From IMG/VR virus record IMGVR_UViG_3300028410_000746: DNA of 64,000 nucleotides; one strand, written 5' to 3'. Shown here one piece after another: positions 3,183 through 62,079 of the stretch. Within the stretch, counting starts at the first letter, position 1, and every line of letters begins with the position of its first letter. Origin of the DNA: a virus. Taxonomy: Duplodnaviria; Caudoviricetes. Both the position numbers and the translations under genes were made by a program. Below the pieces are notes generated by a model. That model was not told the DNA's origin, did not search any database, and saw only the letters and a program-made list of their open reading frames with translations.

Positions 3183-3770
3183 TCAAACGTGGGGGTCCTG
3201 CTTGATGACCGCGCCGCTGAAGCCCAGGCCCGAGTAACGGATAGCCTTGATGCTATCACCCTTGGTGGCCCATCCACGCTGGCCGTTGCCCCGCTTCTGA
3301 CGTCGGGTCCAGCACTGAGCGGGGATGTCCTCAAGAGCGACGCCCTCCTCCAGGGCCTGACGCGCCGATCGGAGGTCCGCAACCCAGATCTTCTTCTGCG
3401 AGTCTACCTTGGTGATGATCGCTCCGTAGGAGTCCCCCTGGACGTAGCGGGAAATCTCCCGACCCGCCTTCAGGATCGGGACGATCCTGATGTCCCTCAG
3501 CGCCAGGAAGTTGGAGCCGACCGCTTCTGCCAGCTCCTGGAAGCCAACGTGCTTCCAGGAGCTGCTCATCCAGTCGAAGAGGACCGAGAACTCCGCCGTT
3601 CGGTGGTCCATCCCCTCTTTCTCAGCCAGGATGCGGCCAAACTCTTCAACGGCTATCTTTTGAAGGTCTCGGCTCTCAAGTTTTACCAGGAGGCCTCTGA
3701 AGGCGAAGTTCTCCCGGTCACCGGACCGGACGTCTGCGAGGAAGCTGCGCATCTCACCGTAATTCGACAT
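3183..3770 (-). CDS. Hypothetical protein
   Basis: ORF behind promoter module 3. Confidence 0.6.
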   Translation of the reverse strand: MSNYGEMRSFLADVRSGDRENFAFRGLLVKLESRDLQKIAVEEFGRILAEKEGMDHRTAEFSVLFDWMSSSWKHVGFQELAEAVGSNFLALRDIRIVPILKAGREISRYVQGDSYGAIITKVDSQKKIWVADLRSARQALEEGVALEDIPAQCWTRRQKRGNGQRGWATKGDSIKAIRYSGLGFSGAVIKQDPHV

Positions 3771-3888
3771 TGTTCTCTCCTGTATCGTGGTGCGCCGTTG
3801 GGGCGTGGTGCGCCGTGATCCGGCGCCGTAGTGTGTTGCTCTCTCTTACACACTCTATATACCACAAGGGGTAGGGGTCGTAAAAACT
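3771..3888 (-). promoter_or_regulatory. Repeated promoter plus leader, module 3
   Basis: TTTACG-N17-TATATA; leader with repeated CGGCGC motifs. Confidence 0.7.
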
Positions 3889-3924
3889 ATCTCAGAATAG
3901 TTACAGAACCGGGAAAGCACCTAC

Positions 3925-3956
3925 AAAAAAACCTCCTCGCAGGTGAGCGAGGAGGT
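3925..3956 (-). terminator. Intrinsic terminator
   Basis: 10-bp stem ACCTCCTCGC/GCGAGGAGGT followed by a U-run on the minus strand. Confidence 0.75.
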
Positions 3957-3980
3957 CGGGAGTGTTGAAGGAGAGGGCCG

Positions 3981-4370
3981 TCAGCGTGCGTGGTTCACGT
4001 TGACGTAGAAGTTAACGTGGAAGTAGTCGCTCGCCATGTCCGAGCCGTCGAAGTTGTAGGCCTTGGCGATCGCCTCCAAGGCGGCATCCACCGCTTTGCG
4101 CTGGTCGGAGTAGACACTCTCGACCCGGTACATGGCCTTCTCCATATCGGACGCCTCGCGGCGCAGCTCGTAGGCGTACTCCTTGACCTCGATGCTGAGG
4201 CTCTGACCCCCTGAGTAGCGCTTGATGCGCACGCTCGCCTTGATCTTGGGGAGGTCCCCCGCCTTGACGGCGGCCTTGATGTCCTGGCGGACCTTCTTGG
4301 CGATCTCGGAAATGTCAAGGCCCTGCTCGTACTTGGAACCGTAAGCGACGGAGTAATCAGGAGCGTGCAT
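3981..4370 (-). CDS. LPD29-like (large polyvalent protein-associated domain 29) protein
   Basis: AKKVRQDIK..SVRIKRYSGGQSLSIEV..SDMASDYFHVNFY matches the LPD29 pattern as recalled. Confidence 0.65.
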   Translation of the reverse strand: MHAPDYSVAYGSKYEQGLDISEIAKKVRQDIKAAVKAGDLPKIKASVRIKRYSGGQSLSIEVKEYAYELRREASDMEKAMYRVESVYSDQRKAVDAALEAIAKAYNFDGSDMASDYFHVNFYVNVNHAR

Positions 4371-5495: not shown

Positions 5496-6086
5496 CTACT
5501 CTATACCACACGACGGGCTCCTCGTAAGAAGTTCGCCGTCTTTTATCCGAGACATGGCCCAACCGCCCTTCGGCGCGCGCACGACCTGGAAGCGGTACGG
5601 CGTGTCCGGGAACGCAAGCTCAACCCCCTCGTCGAGGTCCCGGATGTGGATGTACAGATCGCCTGCCGCGTTGAACCACCGGCGCGTCTGGTCCCACCTT
5701 GGGTGAATCCGATCGTACTCCTTGAGGTTGCCTTCTTCGAGGAGCTGCTCCGGCTCTTCCATGATCGCGTACCACGGCCGGGAGTAGCGCACAGGGGGCG
5801 GGTACGGAAAGGGCTCCTTGCCCGACCGTAGACGCCTCAAGAGTGCCGAGTGTTGTGCGTCGGTCACCAGACGTCCAACGGTGTTCGGATACTTGCCCTC
5901 AGGCCCACCGGGTCGGCAGGCCTCAAAACGGACCCGAAGCCACGTCAAGACGTGCTCGACCTCTTGCCCCTCGTAAGGGCTGAAGAGGTCGCGCAAGAAA
6001 GCCTCACGTCTCGCCGGCGTCTCGGGGATGGCCGTGTGGCTGCCGACCTCATCCCGTATCTGACTGTAGTTCAAAGGAACCTTCAT
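5496..6086 (-). CDS. Hypothetical protein
   Basis: ATG immediately follows the TAG of the upstream gene, in frame. Confidence 0.55.
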   Translation of the reverse strand: MKVPLNYSQIRDEVGSHTAIPETPARREAFLRDLFSPYEGQEVEHVLTWLRVRFEACRPGGPEGKYPNTVGRLVTDAQHSALLRRLRSGKEPFPYPPPVRYSRPWYAIMEEPEQLLEEGNLKEYDRIHPRWDQTRRWFNAAGDLYIHIRDLDEGVELAFPDTPYRFQVVRAPKGGWAMSRIKDGELLTRSPSCGIE

Positions 6087-7097
6087 CTAATCCTCCGGGA
6101 CGTCTAAAGACCTCAAGTGTTCCACAGCCTCCGCCCTCTTGGCAAGCAGGTACTCATCCTTGAGCTGCTGGGTTCTCTTCTCCTGGCGAGACCACGCGTC
6201 GACATACTCGAAGTCCTGATCACTTACAGCCGGAAGCGCCTCGAACCGAGGGGACGCCTCAAGACCGGCGAGACGTTCTCCAAATCGCGCTGAGAAGGTC
6301 TCGAACAACTCACGCGCTTCCTGGCGCATGACCGCCTTGTGGCCACACGTGGAAGCCAAATACAGCGCCTCATGGGCCAGAAGAAGCCAGTCGTCTTGTA
6401 TGTCTTCGGGGATCAACTGAATGCTCCCACGAAGACTGCGCAAGGGGAGCGGCTGCCCTTCTCCGAGAGACCCTCGATCTGCTTCCAAGCGCTCCGCTGC
6501 CCAACGCCCAGCCTCCCGACGGGCTCGGCTATGAGCTACGATCTCTTCGCCCACCATAAAAGGCTCCAGCTCCTCCCAGGTCCCAGGTAGAGCGTTCTGT
6601 TGATACAAGGCTTCGCATACGAGGTCGATCTCCTGAAGCAGAGCCTCAGCAGCAGAAGGCTCCGATTCCCCGCCTCCAACATCCGGAAGGTCCGACCAGT
6701 GCAAGTCAGGCCACGTCACGATCTGACCATCCAGCCACGCGTATCCCGTACCCGAGCTAAAGAAACAGTCAGACAGAACGCTCCAGCGGGTGTGGTACAG
6801 ATCACCATACTCGCGGTAGCACCACTCAAAGAGGCGCTCTACAGTGCTGTCGTACAACCCCTGCTGGTGTTCCCGGACGAAACGTCTCCCCTTGGCCAAG
6901 GCGACCTCTTTCGTGGGAGACATGCGACATGCTGCCTGGACATGGGAGCCCTGACGTGGGATCTGCTCGATATACGAGGACATCCAATTGACACCCTGAG
7001 GGTAATCAATACGAATGCAACACTGCCACGCCTCACCAAACATCCAGCACGCGACCTCATATCGGCCCTGCGTGAATTCTTCCCGCTCCTCACTCAT
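6087..7097 (-). CDS. Hypothetical protein (start MSEERE)
   Basis: Start overlaps the upstream stop; ends in TAG. Confidence 0.6.
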   Translation of the reverse strand: MSEEREEFTQGRYEVACWMFGEAWQCCIRIDYPQGVNWMSSYIEQIPRQGSHVQAACRMSPTKEVALAKGRRFVREHQQGLYDSTVERLFEWCYREYGDLYHTRWSVLSDCFFSSGTGYAWLDGQIVTWPDLHWSDLPDVGGGESEPSAAEALLQEIDLVCEALYQQNALPGTWEELEPFMVGEEIVAHSRARREAGRWAAERLEADRGSLGEGQPLPLRSLRGSIQLIPEDIQDDWLLLAHEALYLASTCGHKAVMRQEARELFETFSARFGERLAGLEASPRFEALPAVSDQDFEYVDAWSRQEKRTQQLKDEYLLAKRAEAVEHLRSLDVPED

Positions 7098-7351
7098 CTC
7101 ATTATCCCGAGCTTGGCATAGGCCTTGAGGGCGCGTTGAAGGCCGTCGGCTCGGTTGGCCGTGCCGGGCTTGGACGTGTGCACCTCCATACCCCTCATGC
7201 AAATTGCGTAGAACGGAAGGCCCGACCAGGGGCTCTTGGACTCCTGGAGCAACTCACACCTCCAGACCTCCGCGCCATCATCGAGATCTCGAATCTTGAC
7301 CGCTTTGAGGTCCTCGCGCTGGTCGATACGCGACTCTATCTTGTCTGCCAT
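7094..7351 (-). CDS. Hypothetical protein
   Basis: Tiles operon. Confidence 0.5.
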   Translation of the reverse strand: MADKIESRIDQREDLKAVKIRDLDDGAEVWRCELLQESKSPWSGLPFYAICMRGMEVHTSKPGTANRADGLQRALKAYAKLGIMR

Positions 7352-8122: not shown

Positions 8123-8822
8123 GTCCGTCTCCTGATTCGGCCACGTCTTCACGTGTCCACATCCACTGCAACTGATAGAACCCGCCGTCGCTTTCGCGGC
8201 GCTCCGCTTCTGGCTCAACCCACGCGTCGGCGTGCTCTCGAACCTCGATCTCCAGGCCGGGAGCGTTGCGGTAGAACCAGGAGAACATCTCATGGCGCGT
8301 TGTCGTATCCGCCATCTCCAGACGTACCCCGTAGAGGGTCTCTCGGAGGCTCCTCAAAGGAGTACCATCCGGCACCACGACCGTCAAGATGAGTTCAGGT
8401 TCTCCATCCTCCGGGCCCACCTGGAAGGTTCGACGTATACCGAGAGCCAGGGAGCCAAAGGCGGCGAAAATGCGACGCGCGGCTTCAAGGTCCAGGCCTC
8501 CAAACCCTTCCTCAGCCCATCTGAGGTGCGCGTGCGAGGTCTGTGCTTTGAGGACCGCGAGGGCTCCCAGATCTACCGCGTAGCTCTTGCCCCCAGACTC
8601 GATGATCCAGAACTGATTGGTCGCCTCATCGTAGGTCCACGTCAGCTCCGGATTCAACTCGACATCACGCACAGAAAACCTCCCTTCAAGCAGCTCCTGC
8701 CGTCGAGGCGGCCCCGTGAGGGCGTGAGCCCTGGCGACACGGCGGCGCTTATAGACGTCAGCACAGGACAACAAAAAGATGAGCCCCACCCACACGATAC
8801 CGAGTAGATAGAGGCCCATCAT
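8106..8822 (-). CDS. Hypothetical protein with N-terminal TM helix
   Basis: Hydrophobic N-terminus. Confidence 0.5.
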   Translation of the reverse strand: MMGLYLLGIVWVGLIFLLSCADVYKRRRVARAHALTGPPRRQELLEGRFSVRDVELNPELTWTYDEATNQFWIIESGGKSYAVDLGALAVLKAQTSHAHLRWAEEGFGGLDLEAARRIFAAFGSLALGIRRTFQVGPEDGEPELILTVVVPDGTPLRSLRETLYGVRLEMADTTTRHEMFSWFYRNAPGLEIEVREHADAWVEPEAERRESDGGFYQLQWMWTREDVAESGDGHDQED

Positions 8823-8838
8823 GACAACACCCTACGAA

Positions 8839-9108
8839 TCAGCGCTCCAGGGAGTCGTTGACCTGCGGAAGAAACTTCGTGTGCAGGTCGCGCTCCACAA
8901 GGAGCCGCAAGACGTCCGCCGCACAGGAGATCACGGCATAGATGTCCTTGGTTTCGAGCTGCGGCATCTCGTACAGGATCTGGTCGACAGTCCACCCGCT
9001 CGACAGCAAAGAGAGCAAGAACTCCACGCTTATGCGAGTTCCTCGAACCGTCGGTCGCCCTCCCATGACTGCTTCGTTTGATACAATACGTGTCCGCCAG
9101 TCTATCAC
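8839..9108 (-). CDS. DUF433 domain protein
   Basis: RIVSNEAVMGGRPTVRGTRISVEFLLSLLSSGWTVDQILYEMPQLETKDI; GTG start with GAGGT RBS. Confidence 0.85.
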   Translation of the reverse strand: MIDWRTRIVSNEAVMGGRPTVRGTRISVEFLLSLLSSGWTVDQILYEMPQLETKDIYAVISCAADVLRLLVERDLHTKFLPQVNDSLER

Positions 9109-14823: not shown

Positions 14824-15594
14824 TCAGCGGTAGAGCTTGAGCTTCCCGGTGATAGGGTCAAGGTCCTCCGCGTACTCCGGACCTATCGCCAAGGCCGTCG
14901 TCTGCGCGCCCGCAAAGATCGTCCGACCCTCATCGACCACGAGAGCGGTACGCAGGCCTGCCTCCTGTGCGGCAGCGTACAGCGCGAGCATCTCCGACTC
15001 GCTGTCAACTCCCAACACGATCTTGACGTGAGAGCCCTTGCTCCACGCGAGGTCGAGCGGTCTCATCTTCAGCGTCAGGTCTCCAGGTCCCGATGTGAGG
15101 GCCTCGCCCATGAACGCCTTGAGGCTGGCATGAGCAGCCTGCGCCGCTGCCTTGCCTGCGGGCATCTTGAGGTCGGTCCGTAGAATGATCACTTGCTTGG
15201 GCTCTCTCATCTCCATCACCTTGGTCTGTAGGGGGTTGAGCTGTAGGAGGTAGCGTTCTGCCTCCCGCGTATGCGTACACACGGTGGCTACGATCTTGGC
15301 CGGACGAAGCAGCGAAGCGTAAGCCATACCGTCAGCCGGATCAGTCGTCTCCTCCCAGGAGGACTCCAACTCCACCGCGTAGACGCCCGAGCCCACCCAG
15401 ACACCACTCTCCGTCAAGAGCACCGCCCCGCCTGAGCGAATATAGAAGGACAGCACATCATAGAGAGTCTTCCAGACGGTCCCCTCCACGTCCTTGTAGA
15501 TCGAGACGTCTCTCCACTTCTCGTAGGTCTGGAGGTTCCCGACCGTGTATGCGCGCGTGCCGGGGAGAGTCGGCACATCTTTGGACCAGCTCAT
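14824..15594 (-). CDS. pth2: Peptidyl-tRNA hydrolase Pth2 with an N-terminal extension (or an internal start)
   Basis: KQVIILRTDLKMPAGKAAAQAAHAS..VKIVL..VVDEGRT..TALAIGP..LDPITGKLKL. Confidence 0.88.
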   Translation of the reverse strand: MSWSKDVPTLPGTRAYTVGNLQTYEKWRDVSIYKDVEGTVWKTLYDVLSFYIRSGGAVLLTESGVWVGSGVYAVELESSWEETTDPADGMAYASLLRPAKIVATVCTHTREAERYLLQLNPLQTKVMEMREPKQVIILRTDLKMPAGKAAAQAAHASLKAFMGEALTSGPGDLTLKMRPLDLAWSKGSHVKIVLGVDSESEMLALYAAAQEAGLRTALVVDEGRTIFAGAQTTALAIGPEYAEDLDPITGKLKLYR

Positions 15595-19741: not shown

Positions 19742-19814
19742 TAGTCACGATGGGACTCGAACCCATACACGGGGATTTAGAATCCCCTGCTCTAACCCGT
19801 TGAGCTACACGACT
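19742..19814 (-). tRNA. tRNA-Sup(CUA), amber suppressor, copy 1
   Basis: Cloverleaf; anticodon arm GGGGA-TT CTA AA-TCCCC; A73; no encoded CCA. Confidence 0.9.
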
Positions 19815-19929: not shown

Positions 19930-20880
19930 TCAAGACAAATAGGCACCCTCGGGACCACAAAGATCCAGGCGATCGCCAATGAGACCTCGCACGCGCGCAC
20001 GCTCGTCCGCATCCATGCGCGCCCACTGAGCCGCCACCTGCTCCCGGACCTCGGCAGGAACCTTATCCTTTGGAGAGGGTACCCACTCACGCAGGTACTG
20101 AATCATCTGGGCTGCGCGGTCCATGTCTGACGGCCGCCAGACGCACACACGCTCTCGCTCCTCCGTCACCGCCTTGACGGACTTGAAGGCCTCCTCAGAG
20201 TCGACGTCATTGTCCAGGTAGTCCTCCCAGCAGGCGCTGTTGAGGGCATTGAACGCAAGGTCCTGCTCTCCCTTCAGGTCGAGCACGAAGGCTTCGTACT
20301 CCTTGTGGTAGATCGCGTCTTCTTCTTTCCAGGTGAAGCTGCCGTCTTCCTGCCAGGACCCCTCAGTCGGGTCCAACCCTGACTCGAAGATCACGGGCCA
20401 CGGAACGTTGAGAGGCTCGCTGACGTCATACATCCGCACCTGATAGGGACACCCCCAGTAGCAGCCCTCCATGACCAGGAACTGCTTGCACGGCGACAGT
20501 TGCATCAACGCAATGCAGAACCCATGTCCGTCATTGGCCGCCTCGGAGAGGAAGTCGACCTGTTCGCCGTCGCTCAGGCGCACCACCGTATACCCCTGGT
20601 AGTCAAACCCACAGATCAAGTAGTCCTCGCCGTCCTCCGCGCCCACGAGGAACTCGTAAGGAAAAGACCCGAAGTTGCGGTCGACCCGCGCCACCTCGTC
20701 ATCTCCCCGATACACAATCCCACGAGAGTAGCCCCACGCCTCCTTTTCCGGATTATTCAGGTTGCCGATCACGAGTTGGTAGGTCTCGCAAGGGCTCATC
20801 CGGGGTGTGTCCCGCACCGTGAAATCCCAGTCGGACATGTCAGGGCGGTCGTAGGCTTCGGTCGTCGTCTCAGCACTCAT
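19930..20880 (-). CDS. Hypothetical acidic protein
   Basis: RBS GGAG; start MSAETT. Confidence 0.6.
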   Translation of the reverse strand: MSAETTTEAYDRPDMSDWDFTVRDTPRMSPCETYQLVIGNLNNPEKEAWGYSRGIVYRGDDEVARVDRNFGSFPYEFLVGAEDGEDYLICGFDYQGYTVVRLSDGEQVDFLSEAANDGHGFCIALMQLSPCKQFLVMEGCYWGCPYQVRMYDVSEPLNVPWPVIFESGLDPTEGSWQEDGSFTWKEEDAIYHKEYEAFVLDLKGEQDLAFNALNSACWEDYLDNDVDSEEAFKSVKAVTEERERVCVWRPSDMDRAAQMIQYLREWVPSPKDKVPAEVREQVAAQWARMDADERARVRGLIGDRLDLCGPEGAYLS

Positions 20881-20945
20881 TGTCTTCTCCAGTATTAAAG
20901 GCGAAGGGCCCACGCATCCAATGATGCGCGAGCCCTTCAGGTTGT

Positions 20946-21542
20946 TCACGTGTTGTACGTGTCTCGCCGCTGCCGGCTCTCCTCGGCGTACTCCTCCGTG
21001 GAGCGATACTGCCGGCGCGTCCGTCGCTTGGAGGCGCGCTGGCGCCTCTCCTCCTTACGAATCTCGAAGGTGGTCCGCTCGTAGGCTTTCGCCGTTGCCT
21101 CCCACTCCTCCCACGCCAGCTCGTAGCGCTCGCGCTCGGCCGCCATCACGCCCTTCGTCGTCGAGTACGGGAGACCCTGCACGTAGGAGACGACACGCGG
21201 GCCATGCTCCATCACGAGGGCCCTCACCTTGGAGAGGTCGCCCGAGAACCGATAGCGGGAGTTGCCCACCATCCTCTCGAAGCTCACGCCACGCATGAAG
21301 CCATACGCCAGCAACAGGTTTCTCAGCTTGCCCCCGTACGGACCCGCACCCGCACCGCACCGGCGACGGTACATCTTCTGGCACGCCTCCGTCTCCAGGA
21401 GGTTCCAACGCAAGGCGTCGATGGTGGTGTTGTAGTAGCGGCACTTGTGAGGACGCAGGCCCTTGGTGTTGGCGAAGGGGTTGACCTCCTCGATTGCGGG
21501 GATCTCAAGGCTCGGGGTCATTGGCTCGATAGTCATCGTCAT
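20946..21542 (-). CDS. Hypothetical basic protein
   Basis: Tiles the operon downstream of the Pth2-like gene. Confidence 0.55.
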   Translation of the reverse strand: MTMTIEPMTPSLEIPAIEEVNPFANTKGLRPHKCRYYNTTIDALRWNLLETEACQKMYRRRCGAGAGPYGGKLRNLLLAYGFMRGVSFERMVGNSRYRFSGDLSKVRALVMEHGPRVVSYVQGLPYSTTKGVMAAERERYELAWEEWEATAKAYERTTFEIRKEERRQRASKRRTRRQYRSTEEYAEESRQRRDTYNT

Positions 21543-21594
21543 CTCTCTTTGTTTGATCGGCCACAGCACAGCGAAGGGTGAGAGGTCACGTCCG

Positions 21595-21963
21595 CTATGG
21601 TGGAGGTCGAGAGGAGAGCGCCAAGGGCAAGCCACGGGTCACATGCAAGCACACGTAGTCATCCATCCCGTCGGGATCACCCAGGGGGCGGATCGCCACG
21701 GCGGTCACCGCGTCGCCGTAATACGGCTCACGGAAGACAGTGTGTGAGATGTGATGGGCTTGGAGCTTGGCGACGAGACTCACGAGGTGGTCTTCATCGC
21801 GGGCCGCCAGCATGACGATTCGGTTGGACACTGCGCGCCACGTAGCTACCCCATCCGAGGAGTCTAACGTGTGCTCAATGGCCGCATGAAGCGACTGAGC
21901 GGCCTGTTGCCCGGCAGATAGGTCTGCTCGGGTGACGACATAGAATTTAGCGTTCTACGACAT
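21595..21963 (-). CDS. Pth2-like protein with an in-frame amber codon at codon 3
   Basis: GGAG-N9-ATG TCG TAG AAC GCT AAA TTC TAT GTC = M-S-*-NAKFYVVTRADLSAGQQAAQSLHAA..RIVML..VFREP..TAVAIRP; 122 aa with readthrough. Confidence 0.8.
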
Positions 21964-22060
21964 GTCTTAAGGCTCCAGTAGATCGAGGCACCCAGTGCGC
22001 CTCGGGTTCGTTAGAAAGAGAATGGACACATCGCGACCTTGTGTCAAGGTCTTTTCGCAG

Positions 22061-42789: not shown

Positions 42790-42863
42790 TGCGCCGAGTG
42801 GGGCTCGAACCCACAACACGGGGATTTAGAATCCCCTGCTCTAACCCGTTGAGCTATCGGCGC
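42790..42863 (-). tRNA. tRNA-Sup(CUA), amber suppressor, copy 2
   Basis: Perfect 7-bp acceptor GCGCCGA/TCGGCGC; same D and anticodon arms as copy 1; A73. Confidence 0.92.
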
Positions 42864-50786: not shown

Positions 50787-50891
50787 GACCCCCTGGAGGG
50801 CGCAAGCCGCTGACGTTACAGGACATAGACGGATTACAGAGAAACCCCCGAGACTGACTCGTGATCACGAGCCCGCCTCGGGGGTCAAGAG

Positions 50892-50975
50892 AAGAGCGGG
50901 GGAGAGTCGAACTCCCAGGCCCCGAAGGACTACACCGGGTTCAAACCGGGCTGGCGTGCCCATGCCTACCACTCC
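50892..50975 (-). tRNA. tRNA-Ser(UGA)
   Basis: Type II, loop TT TGA AC; atypical U73. Confidence 0.8.
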
Positions 50976-57670: not shown

Positions 57671-57742
57671 AGCCTCACGAGGGACTTGAACCCTCCTCTC
57701 GGCATTACAAAAGCCGCGCGGCGCCGTCTCCGCTTGGGTGGC
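57671..57742 (-). tRNA. tRNA-Thr(UGU), degenerate acceptor stem
   Basis: Loop TT TGT AA; two acceptor mismatches. Confidence 0.6.
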
Positions 57743-58322: not shown

Positions 58323-58633
58323 TGCGCAAACCATGGGTGTGCCGTGACTCCCCGACCGCCGCAGTCGTCACATGGAGGATGAGAATAGAGAACCCCCTCG
58401 CCGCCACACGCGCCACACTCAAGGTCGTAGAGGACCCCTTGGTAGTCACACCTCGCGCAGCCGTCCGGATCTTCCCCGTCTCCTTCCCCTCCGCAGGCCG
58501 GACACGGAATCTCTTCCAGGAAGCCATCCCCCCGACAGACCTCGCACTCGGTCTCCAGGAGGAGATCCTTTCGGACCCCCTCCATCATACAGACCTCGCA
58601 CTCGACGAGCATTGTGGGAGGCATGGGACTCAT
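58319..58633 (-). CDS. DnaJ-type CxxCxGxG Zn-finger protein
   Basis: Multiple CxxCxGxG repeats. Confidence 0.7.
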   Translation of the reverse strand: MSPMPPTMLVECEVCMMEGVRKDLLLETECEVCRGDGFLEEIPCPACGGEGDGEDPDGCARCDYQGVLYDLECGACGGEGVLYSHPPCDDCGGRGVTAHPWFAQ

Positions 58634-61600
58634 ACAGACGGCTCCTGGACGAAGGGCTCGGTCACCGGGAGAGCCTTGGTCCAGTCACGAAGAACGTCTC
58701 GGAACACCAGCGGCGGAATCTGCTCCACGCGGTCCACCGGGTAGAACGTCATTTCGCTGAGCACCAGGGCGTCCACGTCACGCAGGTCCTTGGTACACTG
58801 CGAGGGCATGATGACCTCACGGATGCCCGCGCGATGCGCGGCGATGACCTTCTCCTTGATGCCGCCGACCGGGAGCACCTGACCCGTGAGCGTAATCTCA
58901 CCGGTCATGGCCACCTCTCGGCGCAGCTTGAGCCCCGCGAAGCGAGAGAGCAAGGCGCTGAACATCGTGATGCCTGCGGAGGGACCATCCTTGGGGATGG
59001 CGCCAGCCGGCACGTGGATGTGAAGGTCGTGCGACTTGATCATGTTGGTGTCTACTCCATACAGATCGCCATGCGCACGCAGGTAGCTCAGGGCAGCCCG
59101 GACAGACTCCTTCATGACGTCTCCGAGCTGGCCCGTCAGCGTCACCTCACCCTTACCCCCTTTCATCGCCTGCACCTCAATGAAGAGGATGTCTCCACCT
59201 ACCGCCGTCCAGGCCAAGCCCGTTGCCACGCCCTCCTGATCCTCACGCTGCGACACCTCCGAGATGTACCGAACGGGACCCAGCGCCTTCTCGACCCGCC
59301 CCATGTCCAGGGGGAACACCGCACCGAGACGCTCAGCCTCCGGAAGCTTGACGACATCCACAGCGATAGAGCGGCACAGGTCTCCCAGCCTACGGTTCAG
59401 GCTACGGACGCCCGCCTCACGGGTGTACTTGTCCACCACGTGGTGGACCACCCCATCCGCGACCTCGATCTGGTCGGGCCCCAGACCGTGGGCGGCTACC
59501 TGCTTGGGGAAGAGATAGCGAGTCGCGATCTCATTCTTCTCGAACATCGTGTAGCTGGGGACCTCCAGGATCTCCATACGGTCACGCAGCGGAGCCGAGA
59601 TCGTATCCAACCGGTTGGCCGTGGCGATGAAGAGGACCTTGGACAGGTCAAGGTCTATCTCCAGGTAGTGGTCGTTGAACGTCGAGTTCTGAGCCGGATC
59701 AAGAACCTCCAGGAACGCGGCGGCGGGGTCGCCTCGGAAGTCCGAGCCCACCTTGTCGATCTCGTCCAGGAGGATGACCGGGTTCATCGTGCCGGCCTTC
59801 TGAAGCGCTCGAACGATGCGGCCCGGCATGGCGCCCACATAGGTACGACGGTGACCACGGATCTCGGACTCGTCGTGCATACCTCCAAGGGAGATGCGCG
59901 CGAACTTGCGGCCCATCGTCCGGGCAATGGACTTGGCGATGGACGTGTTATGCGTCACAATCACGTCATCAGTGATGTAAAGAGAATCAGGAGCAGAGAC
60001 CTTGATGCACTGAGTCTCCTTGACACCTACCGCTACGATATCAGAGATGAACCTCTTGGGAGCGTACTTACTCTTGGAGACCCACCGCTGAGCTTTGGCG
60101 TCACACCAGAAGGGACACTGACCCGCCGACATTGAGACCGTCACGTTGTACGCCAGACGACCCGAACGCCTCTCCCCATCAACCGTATATGACGGCTTTT
60201 TCATCGTCACCCGTGTCACCCCCCCAAGCGACCGGACCAACCACTGCACGTCATCACACAATCGCGTCGACGTCGTACAAAAAGAAACCCTACAACCCGT
60301 CGCGTCTACAGTACCGCCAGTGTCCATCAAGCCCTGCAAAAGAGCGAGCCTCTGCTCTACCGAGCCGTAAAGGTACACATAAGGTACATGCTTTTCGTAC
60401 GAGTAGAGCCCCGTAAGTTCCAGAGCATCCAGCTCCACCTGCAACGCGTCCCGTACAGACCCCTTTCGCCCTGCGGTCAAACGATAGTCACAGGTCTCCG
60501 ACGCTTGCTTGCGCATCCGAACCTCCCCCGGCAAGGCGGCAGCTACGCGTGCGCAAATATCACCCTCTGGGTTTGAAAAACCAACGGAAGCTCCCGTAAG
60601 GCCTCCATCTCCCAAGAGCGCCCCCAAGAGGTACGGGTCAAGGGGTACGGACTTTTCCGCAAACTCCAAGGGCTGGGTCAGAGGGATAGAATGGTTGCGG
60701 CGAGCGTCCGAGCCGTACCGAAGCGTCTCTCGGATTTGCTCCAGAGACTTCACCGACCCCTCACGGGAAGCCTTCCGATCGAGGTCGGTATGCGTGTACC
60801 ACAAGTGCTCGTCGCAACACTCTGTTGATGAGCCGTCTTGAAACTCCACACGATACACCGGCCGCGTGCCTTGAGGGAACGCGCCCTCCACGTGATGAAC
60901 GCCCCCGTCCGCACCCATGACCGCATCACCTACCGCAAGCGTACCCATCGCAACCCAACCCTTCGGGGTCAACACCCGCGCATCCAAAGGCTGCGCCTTG
61001 CCCACACCGGGAGGGCCCACGAAGCACAGGATCGGGCCGTTCATGTCCTGCTTGAGCGCCTGAACAGCCAGATGCTCGACCACCCTTCGCTTCACCTTCT
61101 CCAGGCCGTAGTGGTCCGCGTCGAGCACATCCTCCGCGCGGACGACATCCAGGTTGTCCTCGCTCTCGACGCCCCACGGCACATCGAGCATCTGCTGGAT
61201 GTAGTTGAGCGTCACCGAATACTCGGAGCTGGCCGGCTGCATCGCGTCGAGTCGACGATGCTGCTTCAGGACCGCAGCCTCCACCTCCTCAGGCATGTCT
61301 GCCTCCTGAATACGCTCAAGCAGCTCCTCCGTCTCGGAGATGTCCTCACCGAGCTGGTCCTTGATGACCTTGAGCTGCTGGCGAAGGATGTACTCACGCT
61401 GAATAGACTTGCTGCGCTCCTGGAGCGACTGGTTGATCTCACCCGCCAGCTCCTGGCGCGCGATACGCTCCCCCAGGATGCGCAGACACCGAGACGCGCG
61501 CTCCGTGATGTTCGGCTCCAGGTAGAGAGCCAACAGGTCCTCATCCTCGAAGCGGGGCGCGAGCATGTCTGTAAGGTCTGAGAGGGAGCCCACAGCACGC

Positions 61601-62079
61601 ACGCGCTCGAACTCCTGCTCGGGAGCGTCCGGATCGTCTCCCAGGACCTGAAGCGTCTTCTCCTGAAGCGCCTCGAACAGCGCTTCATTGTACTCCGCCT
61701 CCTTGTCGAACTCCGGTCCAATGACCTCGAAGTGACCCATCAACGGCGCGGAGGCATCCTCCGGAATCTCAAGATCCAGGAGCCTCAGCCTCACCTCCCC
61801 GGAAGAAATGACCGTATAGTCGTTCGCGTTCGGGTTCGGGATGATCTTGATGCAGGACACCAGGGTCGCGATCTCGTGGACCTCATCCATCGAGGACAGC
61901 GTGAGCACGTCCGGAGACTTCTGAAGCACGACCGCGATCTTGAAAGGCGCCGGCGAGTCTGCACCCTCAATGACCGCCAGGGAGCGTGCTCGACCGACCC
62001 GAACAGGGATCATCTGTAGCGGGAAAAGAGGGTTCTCGCGCATGGCGATCACGGGAAGGTACAGGGTGTCAGCGCTCAT
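58630..62079 (-). CDS. lon: ATP-dependent Lon protease containing an intein
   Basis: LON N-domain, GPPGVGK|T, LLDEIDK, DGPSAG catalytic Ser, IGGIKEK-type VGGIKEK. Confidence 0.97.
59947..60996 (-). mobile_element. Class-3 intein (350 aa) with a LAGLIDADG domain in the Lon P-loop
   Basis: Starts AQPLD, ends VTHN before Thr+1; WCT signature (HLW, TQC, VTHN). Confidence 0.92.

Follow-up and report, generated by a model that had tools for sequence, protein, structure and literature searches.

We analysed a 64,000-nucleotide stretch of viral DNA (the window; IMG/VR record IMGVR_UViG_3300028410_000746, Caudoviricetes) that carries a gene for a protein with the fold of peptidyl-tRNA hydrolase 2 (Pth2, Pfam family PTH2). 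The gene opens with ATG TCG TAG, and the complete domain follows this stop in the same frame. Comparison with related genes shows that the early stop is kept under selection and that translation continues into the codons behind it; across many phage lineages, the type of stop matches a neighbouring suppressor transfer RNA (tRNA). These sequence comparisons suggest that translation of the gene probably depends on the phage's own suppressor tRNA, in which case the arrangement would be a translational gate complete in itself. The window comes from a ~366-kb lake-water contig, has ~60% G+C and carries nearly all of its genes on one strand, together with 15-16 tRNA genes, two of which have the anticodon CUA. 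The parts of the gate are laid out as follows.

21976-21973, minus strand: Shine-Dalgarno (SD) sequence GGAG, with a 9-nt spacer to the ATG, read from the sequence
21955..21963, minus strand: two-codon leader and gate, ATG TCG TAG (ATG 21963-21961, TCG 21960-21958, TAG 21957-21955)
21598..21954, minus strand: PTH2-fold domain, open reading frame (ORF) P0001, 119 sense codons in the same frame as the ATG
21586..21597, minus strand: terminator TAG 21597-21595, then CGG ACG and a back-up stop TGA 21588-21586, from the sequence
19742-19814, minus strand: first tRNA with anticodon CUA (ARAGORN; Rfam tRNA 65.7 bits), 1.78 kb downstream of the gene
42790-42863, minus strand: second tRNA with anticodon CUA (ARAGORN; Rfam tRNA 68.1 bits)

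A preliminary description of this DNA had reported the GGAG nine nucleotides ahead of the ATG at 21963, the UAG at codon 3, a Pth2 block directly behind it that an internal GTG start would lose, and a tRNA-CUA about 1.8 kb downstream on the same strand. Each of these is borne out. An in-frame TAA (21969-21967) stands two codons ahead of the leader ATG, and codons 1-41 of the domain contain no ATG, GTG or TTG; the first canonical start past the early TAG is the GTG at 21831, which is domain codon 42. The database stores the gene as a 78-amino-acid fragment. At the far end of the gene, suppressed readthrough of the terminal TAG would lengthen the protein by just two residues, if the suppressor also reads that codon.

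Conservation of the early stop and of the codons behind it

A sequencing error, or a sense codon in close homologs, would have counted against the reading in the preliminary description. We found neither. The probable source run, as assembled independently in Logan, gives the identical stretch at a word depth of 17.6, and the TAG is unchanged in four close relatives, which rules out an error of sequencing or assembly. Three independent assemblies (Logan SRR17165168, ENA ERZ27257088 and ENA ERZ23490130) hold proteins with 61-72% amino-acid identity to that of the window. All three (L001, L002 and L004) keep GGAG-N8-ATG TCG TAG ahead of the domain, and L004 retains the three codons though the next two are absent. 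The fourth relative, a 151-nt seawater contig with 91% nucleotide identity, shows zero differences across 21935-21964. Five independent sequences, from lake and sea water, thereby agree in all nine bases of ATG TCG TAG.

Among these sequences, codons 1-41 behind the TAG have a ratio of nonsynonymous to synonymous change (dN/dS) of 0.09-0.23 and differ by 0.41-0.80 per synonymous site, which shows that they are translated in the frame of the domain. The relatives also share the local gene order, with a small upstream gene and a downstream gene. Further close relatives were sought by several routes. A DNA pattern and a three-sequence profile in IMG/VR yielded none, nor did a profile search of Joint Genome Institute (JGI) metagenomes; all 23 matches of the DNA pattern in metagenome and GTDB contigs were chance. 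Homologs of the downstream 199-amino-acid gene led to no further relatives, and the long contigs reached by a neighbour-based walk were not syntenic.

Other ways around the stop were considered and rejected. Ribosome hopping from UCG to a downstream UCG has a sole matching site, which lands in the wrong frame and is absent in L004, and transcriptional slippage would find no homopolymer run. Nor does a +1 frameshift of the prfB type, which uses a slippery site and an internal SD, apply, the domain continuing in the frame of the ATG. A GTG start at V7, as called for P0003, is present in L001 and L002, but the codon is GTC in the window and CTG in L004.

A PTH2 fold that begins right behind the stop

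The 119-residue product matches Pfam PTH2 (PF01981) at 35.5 bits (gathering cut-off 23), residues 3-91 aligning with profile positions 2-100 of 115. Two PHROGs, annotated as function unknown or 'hydrolase', match as well. An AlphaFold2 model built with 80 homologs reached a mean pLDDT (predicted local distance difference test) of 91.7 and a predicted template-modelling (TM) score of 0.86. In this model strand beta1 spans residues 3-9 (K-F-Y-V-V-T-R), and two codons separate the early stop from K-F-Y-V-V. Comparing the model with the PDB using Foldseek gave top matches at TM 0.65-0.79 overall, with archaeal Pth2 and human Bit1 at 0.70-0.79 (2zv3, 3erj, 1wn2, 1xty; Bit1, 1q7s). Thirteen of the top 15 were Pth2/Bit1 chains, and the remainder, 2gax (Atu0240) and 1rlk (Ta0108), are both of unknown function. 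The family profile matched PDB Pth2 chains with an E-value of 2.8e-12, and solved Pth2 chains, such as the M. jannaschii enzyme, align from residue 1 at the start of the domain. Because the fold begins right after the TAG, a start at GTG 21831 would cost one strand and two helices.

Within this shared fold, the window family keeps the A-Q-x-x-H-A helix of Pth2. It differs in two places: in a profile alignment the G-K-G-K loop of archaeal Pth2 becomes a 2-residue deletion, and R-D-A-G aligns with r-E-P-D/Y. In the characterised Pth2 of S. solfataricus, the catalytic residues are a Lys in the G-K-G-K loop and an Asp in R-D-A-G. The preliminary description had pointed to His/Gln active-site residues. 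They stand as conserved family positions, not as proven catalytic residues, with Q20 invariant and H23 nearly so across the homolog alignment, where E76 is invariant too. The 'peptidyl tRNA hydrolase' annotations of mycobacteriophages rest on homology only. The protein may hydrolyse peptidyl- or N-acyl-aminoacyl-tRNA. Because the family shows no conservation in its N-terminal tail, the residue inserted at the stop should be irrelevant.

Suppressor tRNAs of the window

The two CUA tRNAs of the window are 85% identical. Their core from D arm to anticodon arm is the same, and their acceptor and T stems differ. The best E. coli match of the second copy is tRNA-Phe (83% over positions 6-59), which makes Phe a reasonable guess for the inserted residue. 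A search of IMG/VR for the core pattern found it in one 11.7-kb fragment, from which the gene is absent. Two further predictions concern other tRNAs of the window: an Rfam tRNA at 57671-57742 on the minus strand (38.4 bits) is unlisted by ARAGORN, and an ARAGORN tRNA-Ser(UGA) at 50891-50975 on the minus strand falls below the Rfam threshold.

A widespread pairing of early stop and suppressor tRNA in large phages

The preliminary description had considered this one gene. That view proved too narrow, the arrangement being a widespread cassette and no isolated oddity. An exhaustive homolog search turned up P0148 (~38% identical), which had seemed N-terminally truncated; its DNA reads GGAGG-N6-ATG ACG TAG ATT AAA and goes on to K-L-I-V-I-T-R-R-D-L. 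L003, the first match in IMG/VR, has ATG AAA GAT AAG TAG and a tRNA-CUA 1.4 kb upstream, and GenBank LR756500.1 has ATG AAG TAG ATT with a tRNA-CUA 1.1 kb downstream. We then scanned IMG/VR with a 12-sequence profile, an 80-sequence homolog alignment being too diverse for the purpose. The scan returned 80 loci, each spanning up to 20 kb, with 71 distinct proteins, mostly on contigs of 100-530 kb and with a G+C content of 0.24-0.69.

A gene was called gated if an ATG, 1-7 sense codons and an in-frame stop lay 0-13 codons ahead of the domain with no canonical start between. By this definition 58 of the 80 loci are gated (49 of the 71 distinct proteins). Their stop always falls at codons 3-9, directly ahead of the domain, and is never scattered. 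It is TAG in 55 loci, TGA in two and TAA in one, whereas ordinary ORFs of at least 100 amino acids in the same loci end in TAA (64%), TGA (27%) or TAG (9.4%). In 43 of the 58 the stop is followed by A, and in 12 by G. In E. coli, A or G after UAG favours suppression.

Most gated loci also carry a tRNA that would read their stop. ARAGORN found a matching suppressor in 49 of the 58 (43 of the 49 distinct), and none of the 58 had only a mismatched one. Of 59 distinct loci, 46 have their nearest suppressor downstream of the gene and on its strand, and in 34 it lies no more than 1 kb from the gene end. The window leader, with two codons and TAG, fits this pattern, and its tRNA-CUA at 1.78 kb downstream is within the range of the other loci. 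A suppressor also adjoins the gene in 16 of the 22 ungated loci, so gene and tRNA are paired more widely than the gate occurs. The tree, which is weakly resolved, has TAG-gated genes in all its parts and one large, mostly high-GC clade that is ungated.

The few exceptions to TAG are informative. Wherever the stop becomes TAA or TGA, the neighbouring tRNA reads TAA or TGA. L052 and L053 combine a TGA gate with a tRNA-UCA. The sisters L079 and L083 (99 by the Shimodaira-Hasegawa-like approximate likelihood ratio test) read ATG ACG TAG with a tRNA-CUA 25 nt behind the gene and ATG GCT TAA with a tRNA-UUA directly behind it, respectively. Their leaders are alignable and their tRNA bodies unrelated; judged by these sequences, stop and anticodon have changed together. 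The suppressor-tRNA dependence proposed in the preliminary description thus gains support from the TAG kept in close homologs, the matching tRNAs and the lack of mismatches.

Among cultured phages, two show a related layout. Mycobacteriophages Bxz1 and Myrna have SD-C-ATG/GTG-TAG-GTG before gp154 (L116 2469-2482) and gp84 (L117 2466-2479), with a tRNA-CUA 300 nt behind in Bxz1 (L116 3160-3232) and 130 nt behind in Myrna (L117 2963-3034). The Bxz1 tRNA, gt155, is annotated as 'tRNA-OTHER'. Judged by sequence, the gate is perhaps present here in a relaxed form, and both phages offer tractable experimental models. XacN1 carries its PTH2-like domain, ungated, as the C-terminal part of ORF364. A profile search of Tenacibaculum phage PTm1 gave no match, though tblastn had given two Tenacibaculum records, and no fully gated gene was identified among the cultured phages examined. 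In the Lak megaphage Prevotella phage Lak-B5 (L148), a PTH2-like gene (4001-4249) is apparently ungated, and a tRNA with anticodon UUA (3341-3413) lies 600 nt upstream.

Further features around the leader

Three predicted elements surround the start of the window gene.

22019..22048, minus strand: putative promoter-like element, CTTGACA 22048-22042, 17-nt spacer, CATTCT 22024-22019
21984..22004, minus strand: predicted 5' stem-loop of the putative transcript, 8 bp with a 5-nt loop (structure prediction)
21934..21966, minus strand: possible hairpin by prediction, 5' arm with AUG and UAG, 3' arm formed by the F-Y-V-V codons

A CTTGAC, a 17-nt spacer and a T/C-A-N-N-N-T hexamer recur at the equivalent place in L001, L002 and L004; a simple sigma-70 scan left the window element unflagged. 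The 5' stem-loop is also predicted at the equivalent place in L001 and L004, with differing sequence. The hairpin of AUG and UAG, 12 positions long, is predicted in all four members of the window clade, and 95% of its cells pair. No compensatory changes occur among these four, and leaders differ in other clades. We therefore rejected it as a selected feature; at most it is possibly a clade-specific extra. The motif ATGTCGT occurs twice, 22 nt apart, at window 21929-21963 (minus strand), the second ATG lying out of frame inside TAT GTC. This direct repeat is found only in the window and not in its relatives, and is probably chance.

A proposed gate and its alternatives

We propose the following course of events. 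The gene would be transcribed from its own promoter-like element, and ribosomes would initiate at the SD-led ATG, decode one sense codon (TCG) and reach the UAG. If no tRNA reads UAG, release factor 1 or drop-off would end synthesis at a dipeptide; with the stop at codon 3, the 'off' product would be this dipeptide and not a truncated protein. A charged phage tRNA-CUA would decode the UAG and allow the full 122-residue PTH2-fold protein to be made. Protein amount would then track suppressor activity in the infected cell, following the logic of a coherent feed-forward or AND gate. Presumably the phage tRNA is made and charged, and the arrangement would regulate the gene as a 'switch' instead of attenuating it at a constant level. 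Its purpose may be to tie a tRNA-recycling activity to the level of stop-codon suppression.

A further step, doubtful and offered as speculation, is that the PTH2-like enzyme has as its substrate the suppressor tRNA, in its peptidyl or its N-blocked aminoacyl form, or that it reduces suppression in some other way. In that case the early stop would provide negative feedback that holds readthrough at a set level. If this homeostat is true, it would be a tRNA-based analogue of the autoregulation of release factor 2 (RF2), and the suppressor tRNAs of standard-code jumbo phages would serve mainly a regulatory circuit, not recoding.

Several observations weigh against dependence on a phage suppressor. 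Nine gated loci (six distinct proteins) have no suppressor within 20 kb; L054 and L055 have a tRNA-CUA 40 kb off on the same contig, and most of the other contigs concerned are an estimated 17-52% complete or end just behind the gene. Because of shared ancestry the loci do not count as independent cases, and the tree resolves their relations weakly. Within the window clade, co-occurrence with a tRNA-CUA is seen once only, because the relatives are contigs of at most 1.1 kb. TAG ends several window genes, and a strong suppressor would carry a cost there. The window stretch is absent from the RNA runs searched. Lastly, it is uncertain whether the protein is enzymatically active, the family lacking the GKGK loop of archaeal Pth2.

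Could ribosomes that finish a mini-ORF at the stop start again at a near-cognate codon just behind it (AUU, AUA, GUU), with no need for a suppressor and with the tRNA linkage otherwise caused? The codon after the stop is ATT, ATC or ATA in about two thirds of gated loci and GTT or GTA in ~10 more, and in the ATG/GTG-TAG-GTG of Bxz1 and Myrna the SD is best spaced for the second GTG. Reinitiation is indifferent to the type of stop, yet 55 of 58 gates use TAG where genes end 64% in TAA and 9% in TAG, and the non-TAG exceptions match the anticodon of the local suppressor. In the window clade, moreover, the codon after the TAG is AAC or AAG, which is not start-like. A downstream non-canonical start, which the preliminary description had raised as a possible refutation, can explain neither these codons nor the bias towards TAG, and we judge reinitiation improbable.

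The stop could instead be an attenuator only, rare readthrough by host tRNAs keeping a potentially harmful hydrolase very low while the phage suppressor serves other purposes. Natural readthrough of UAG-A and UGA does occur at low frequency. This and the gated loci without a nearby suppressor would suit such an attenuator; a weak SD or a rare start codon would be a simpler route to the same effect, and the match of stop and anticodon and the close same-strand linkage would be left unexplained. We give this explanation little credence.

A general change of code, with TAG read as an amino acid throughout (code-15-like), is very unlikely. The two tRNA-CUA genes and the minor share of TAG among window stops would be in keeping with it, as would the existence of recoded phages with suppressor tRNAs (bioRxiv 10.1101/2021.08.26.457843). 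However, within the window, which covers 64 of the ~366 kb of this genome, no other likely gene needs TAG readthrough; most genes end in TGA and a few in TAG. Greedy coding density in the window is 0.879 under the standard code and becomes 0.918, 0.900 or 0.943 when TAG, TAA or TGA, respectively, is read as sense. In most of the 80 loci density under the standard code is 0.82-0.95, and it is lower in about a dozen tRNA-rich loci. Reading TAG as sense raises locus density by at most 8 points, a gain no larger than with TAA or TGA, and in the window it adds less than TGA does. The confinement of the stop to codons 3-9 before the domain also speaks against a change of code.

Finally, that the gene is decaying, or that a bar-like minigene is the functional unit and the PTH2 frame untranslated, is scarcely credible: SD, AUG, one codon and stop also make up the toxic minigenes by which Pth becomes loaded with peptidyl-tRNA (PMC2490762, PMC8708949), but purifying selection is strong behind the stop and the fold is intact over 682 homologs and 80 loci.

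Neighbouring elements

At window 5496-7202 (minus strand), the genes 6087-7202 and 5496-6086 share a frame and are divided only by TAG-ATG; the second ends in TAG, one codon and TGA. Judged by this layout, an active amber suppressor would yield a fusion protein here.

Between the gated gene and the first tRNA-CUA lies a 339-amino-acid ORF (window 19930-20949, minus strand) that matches neither Pfam nor the PHROGs. A stretch of ~150 residues at its N-terminus is found again adjoining PTH2-like genes in L039, L058, L061, L070 and L115, and also in tRNA-rich regions of the large phages L005, L006 and L008. On this distribution, the ORF could be a third component of the cassette formed by leader, PTH2-like gene and suppressor tRNA. 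A weak second PTH2-like domain (~14874-15201; hmmsearch independent E-value 1.3e-6, 16.9 bits) is found in a 256-amino-acid ORF at window 14824-15594 (minus strand).

In L066, a phage gene for transfer-messenger RNA (8545-8899) lies 1.1 kb upstream of the gated PTH2-like gene; L066 and L067 have no tRNA in 20 kb. L081 carries a GOLLD RNA (3579-4063). A phage Lon protease of 1149 amino acids in the window (58630-62079, minus strand) has a LAGLIDADG-type insert in its AAA+ region, which is probably an intein.

Relation to known systems and meaning

Stop-codon recoding with suppressor tRNAs and 'code change modules' has been described in phages (Borges et al., bioRxiv 10.1101/2021.08.26.457843; Peters et al., PMC9523058). 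There, as proposed for the window, a phage tRNA that reads a stop enables genes with an in-frame stop, and a timing or regulatory device has been suggested. Recoded phages, which are mostly low-GC gut phages, scatter stops through many late, structural and lysis genes and read TAG as Gln or TGA as Trp. In contrast, the window cassette has standard-code surroundings, one small gene, a single stop in the first codons and a linked tRNA with a Phe-like body. The first of these papers (bioRxiv 10.1101/2021.08.26.457843) mentions hydrolase zero times.

Cultured jumbo phages with the standard code, namely XacN1 (PMC5852040), RsoM2USA (PMC8504454) and Atu_ph07 (PMC6102473), carry many tRNAs, including CUA or UCA suppressors. 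In-silico readthrough of 18 amber stops in XacN1 revealed no target (PMC5852040), and for RsoM2USA and Atu_ph07 several genes were suggested as possible targets from stop-codon counts, none of them named (PMC8504454, PMC6102473).

The gene for release factor 2, prfB, also has a conserved early in-frame stop, UGA in its case, that makes synthesis of a translation factor depend on its decoding. It differs in using a +1 frameshift and in sensing its own product, whereas in the cassette the frame is unchanged and the decoder is a separate tRNA gene; feedback by the cassette product is conjecture. Lambda bar is a two-codon minigene. Such minigenes resemble the cassette leader in having an SD, an AUG, one sense codon and a stop, and they yield short peptidyl-tRNAs, the substrate of peptidyl-tRNA hydrolase (PMC2490762, PMC8708949). 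Minigenes are free-standing, whereas the window leader runs on, in the same frame, into a conserved domain of 119 codons on which purifying selection acts. A synthetic feed-forward gate engineered in E. coli likewise combines early amber codons with a co-expressed suppressor into a low-leak AND gate (PMC7969014); the cassette would be a natural, widely conserved counterpart. In the full-text literature searched, outside which most subscription journals lie, we met no account of a stop-gated PTH2-like gene beside its suppressor tRNA. On these comparisons the cassette is apparently an undescribed, widespread variant of suppressor-tRNA-dependent gene expression.

The cassette would give the 'orphan' suppressor tRNAs of standard-code jumbo phages, in lineages other than XacN1, a conserved and testable client gene, and its rule is easily stated: the neighbouring tRNA has the anticodon that reads the early stop. 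It also offers compact, orthogonal-looking pairs of tRNA and leader for synthetic biology. If confirmed, it would put right the records of hundreds of phage genes whose proteins are at present annotated as N-terminally truncated, and would represent natural control of a gene by a dedicated pair of tRNA and codon. It would also point to a functional link between stop-codon suppression and the recycling of peptidyl-tRNA.
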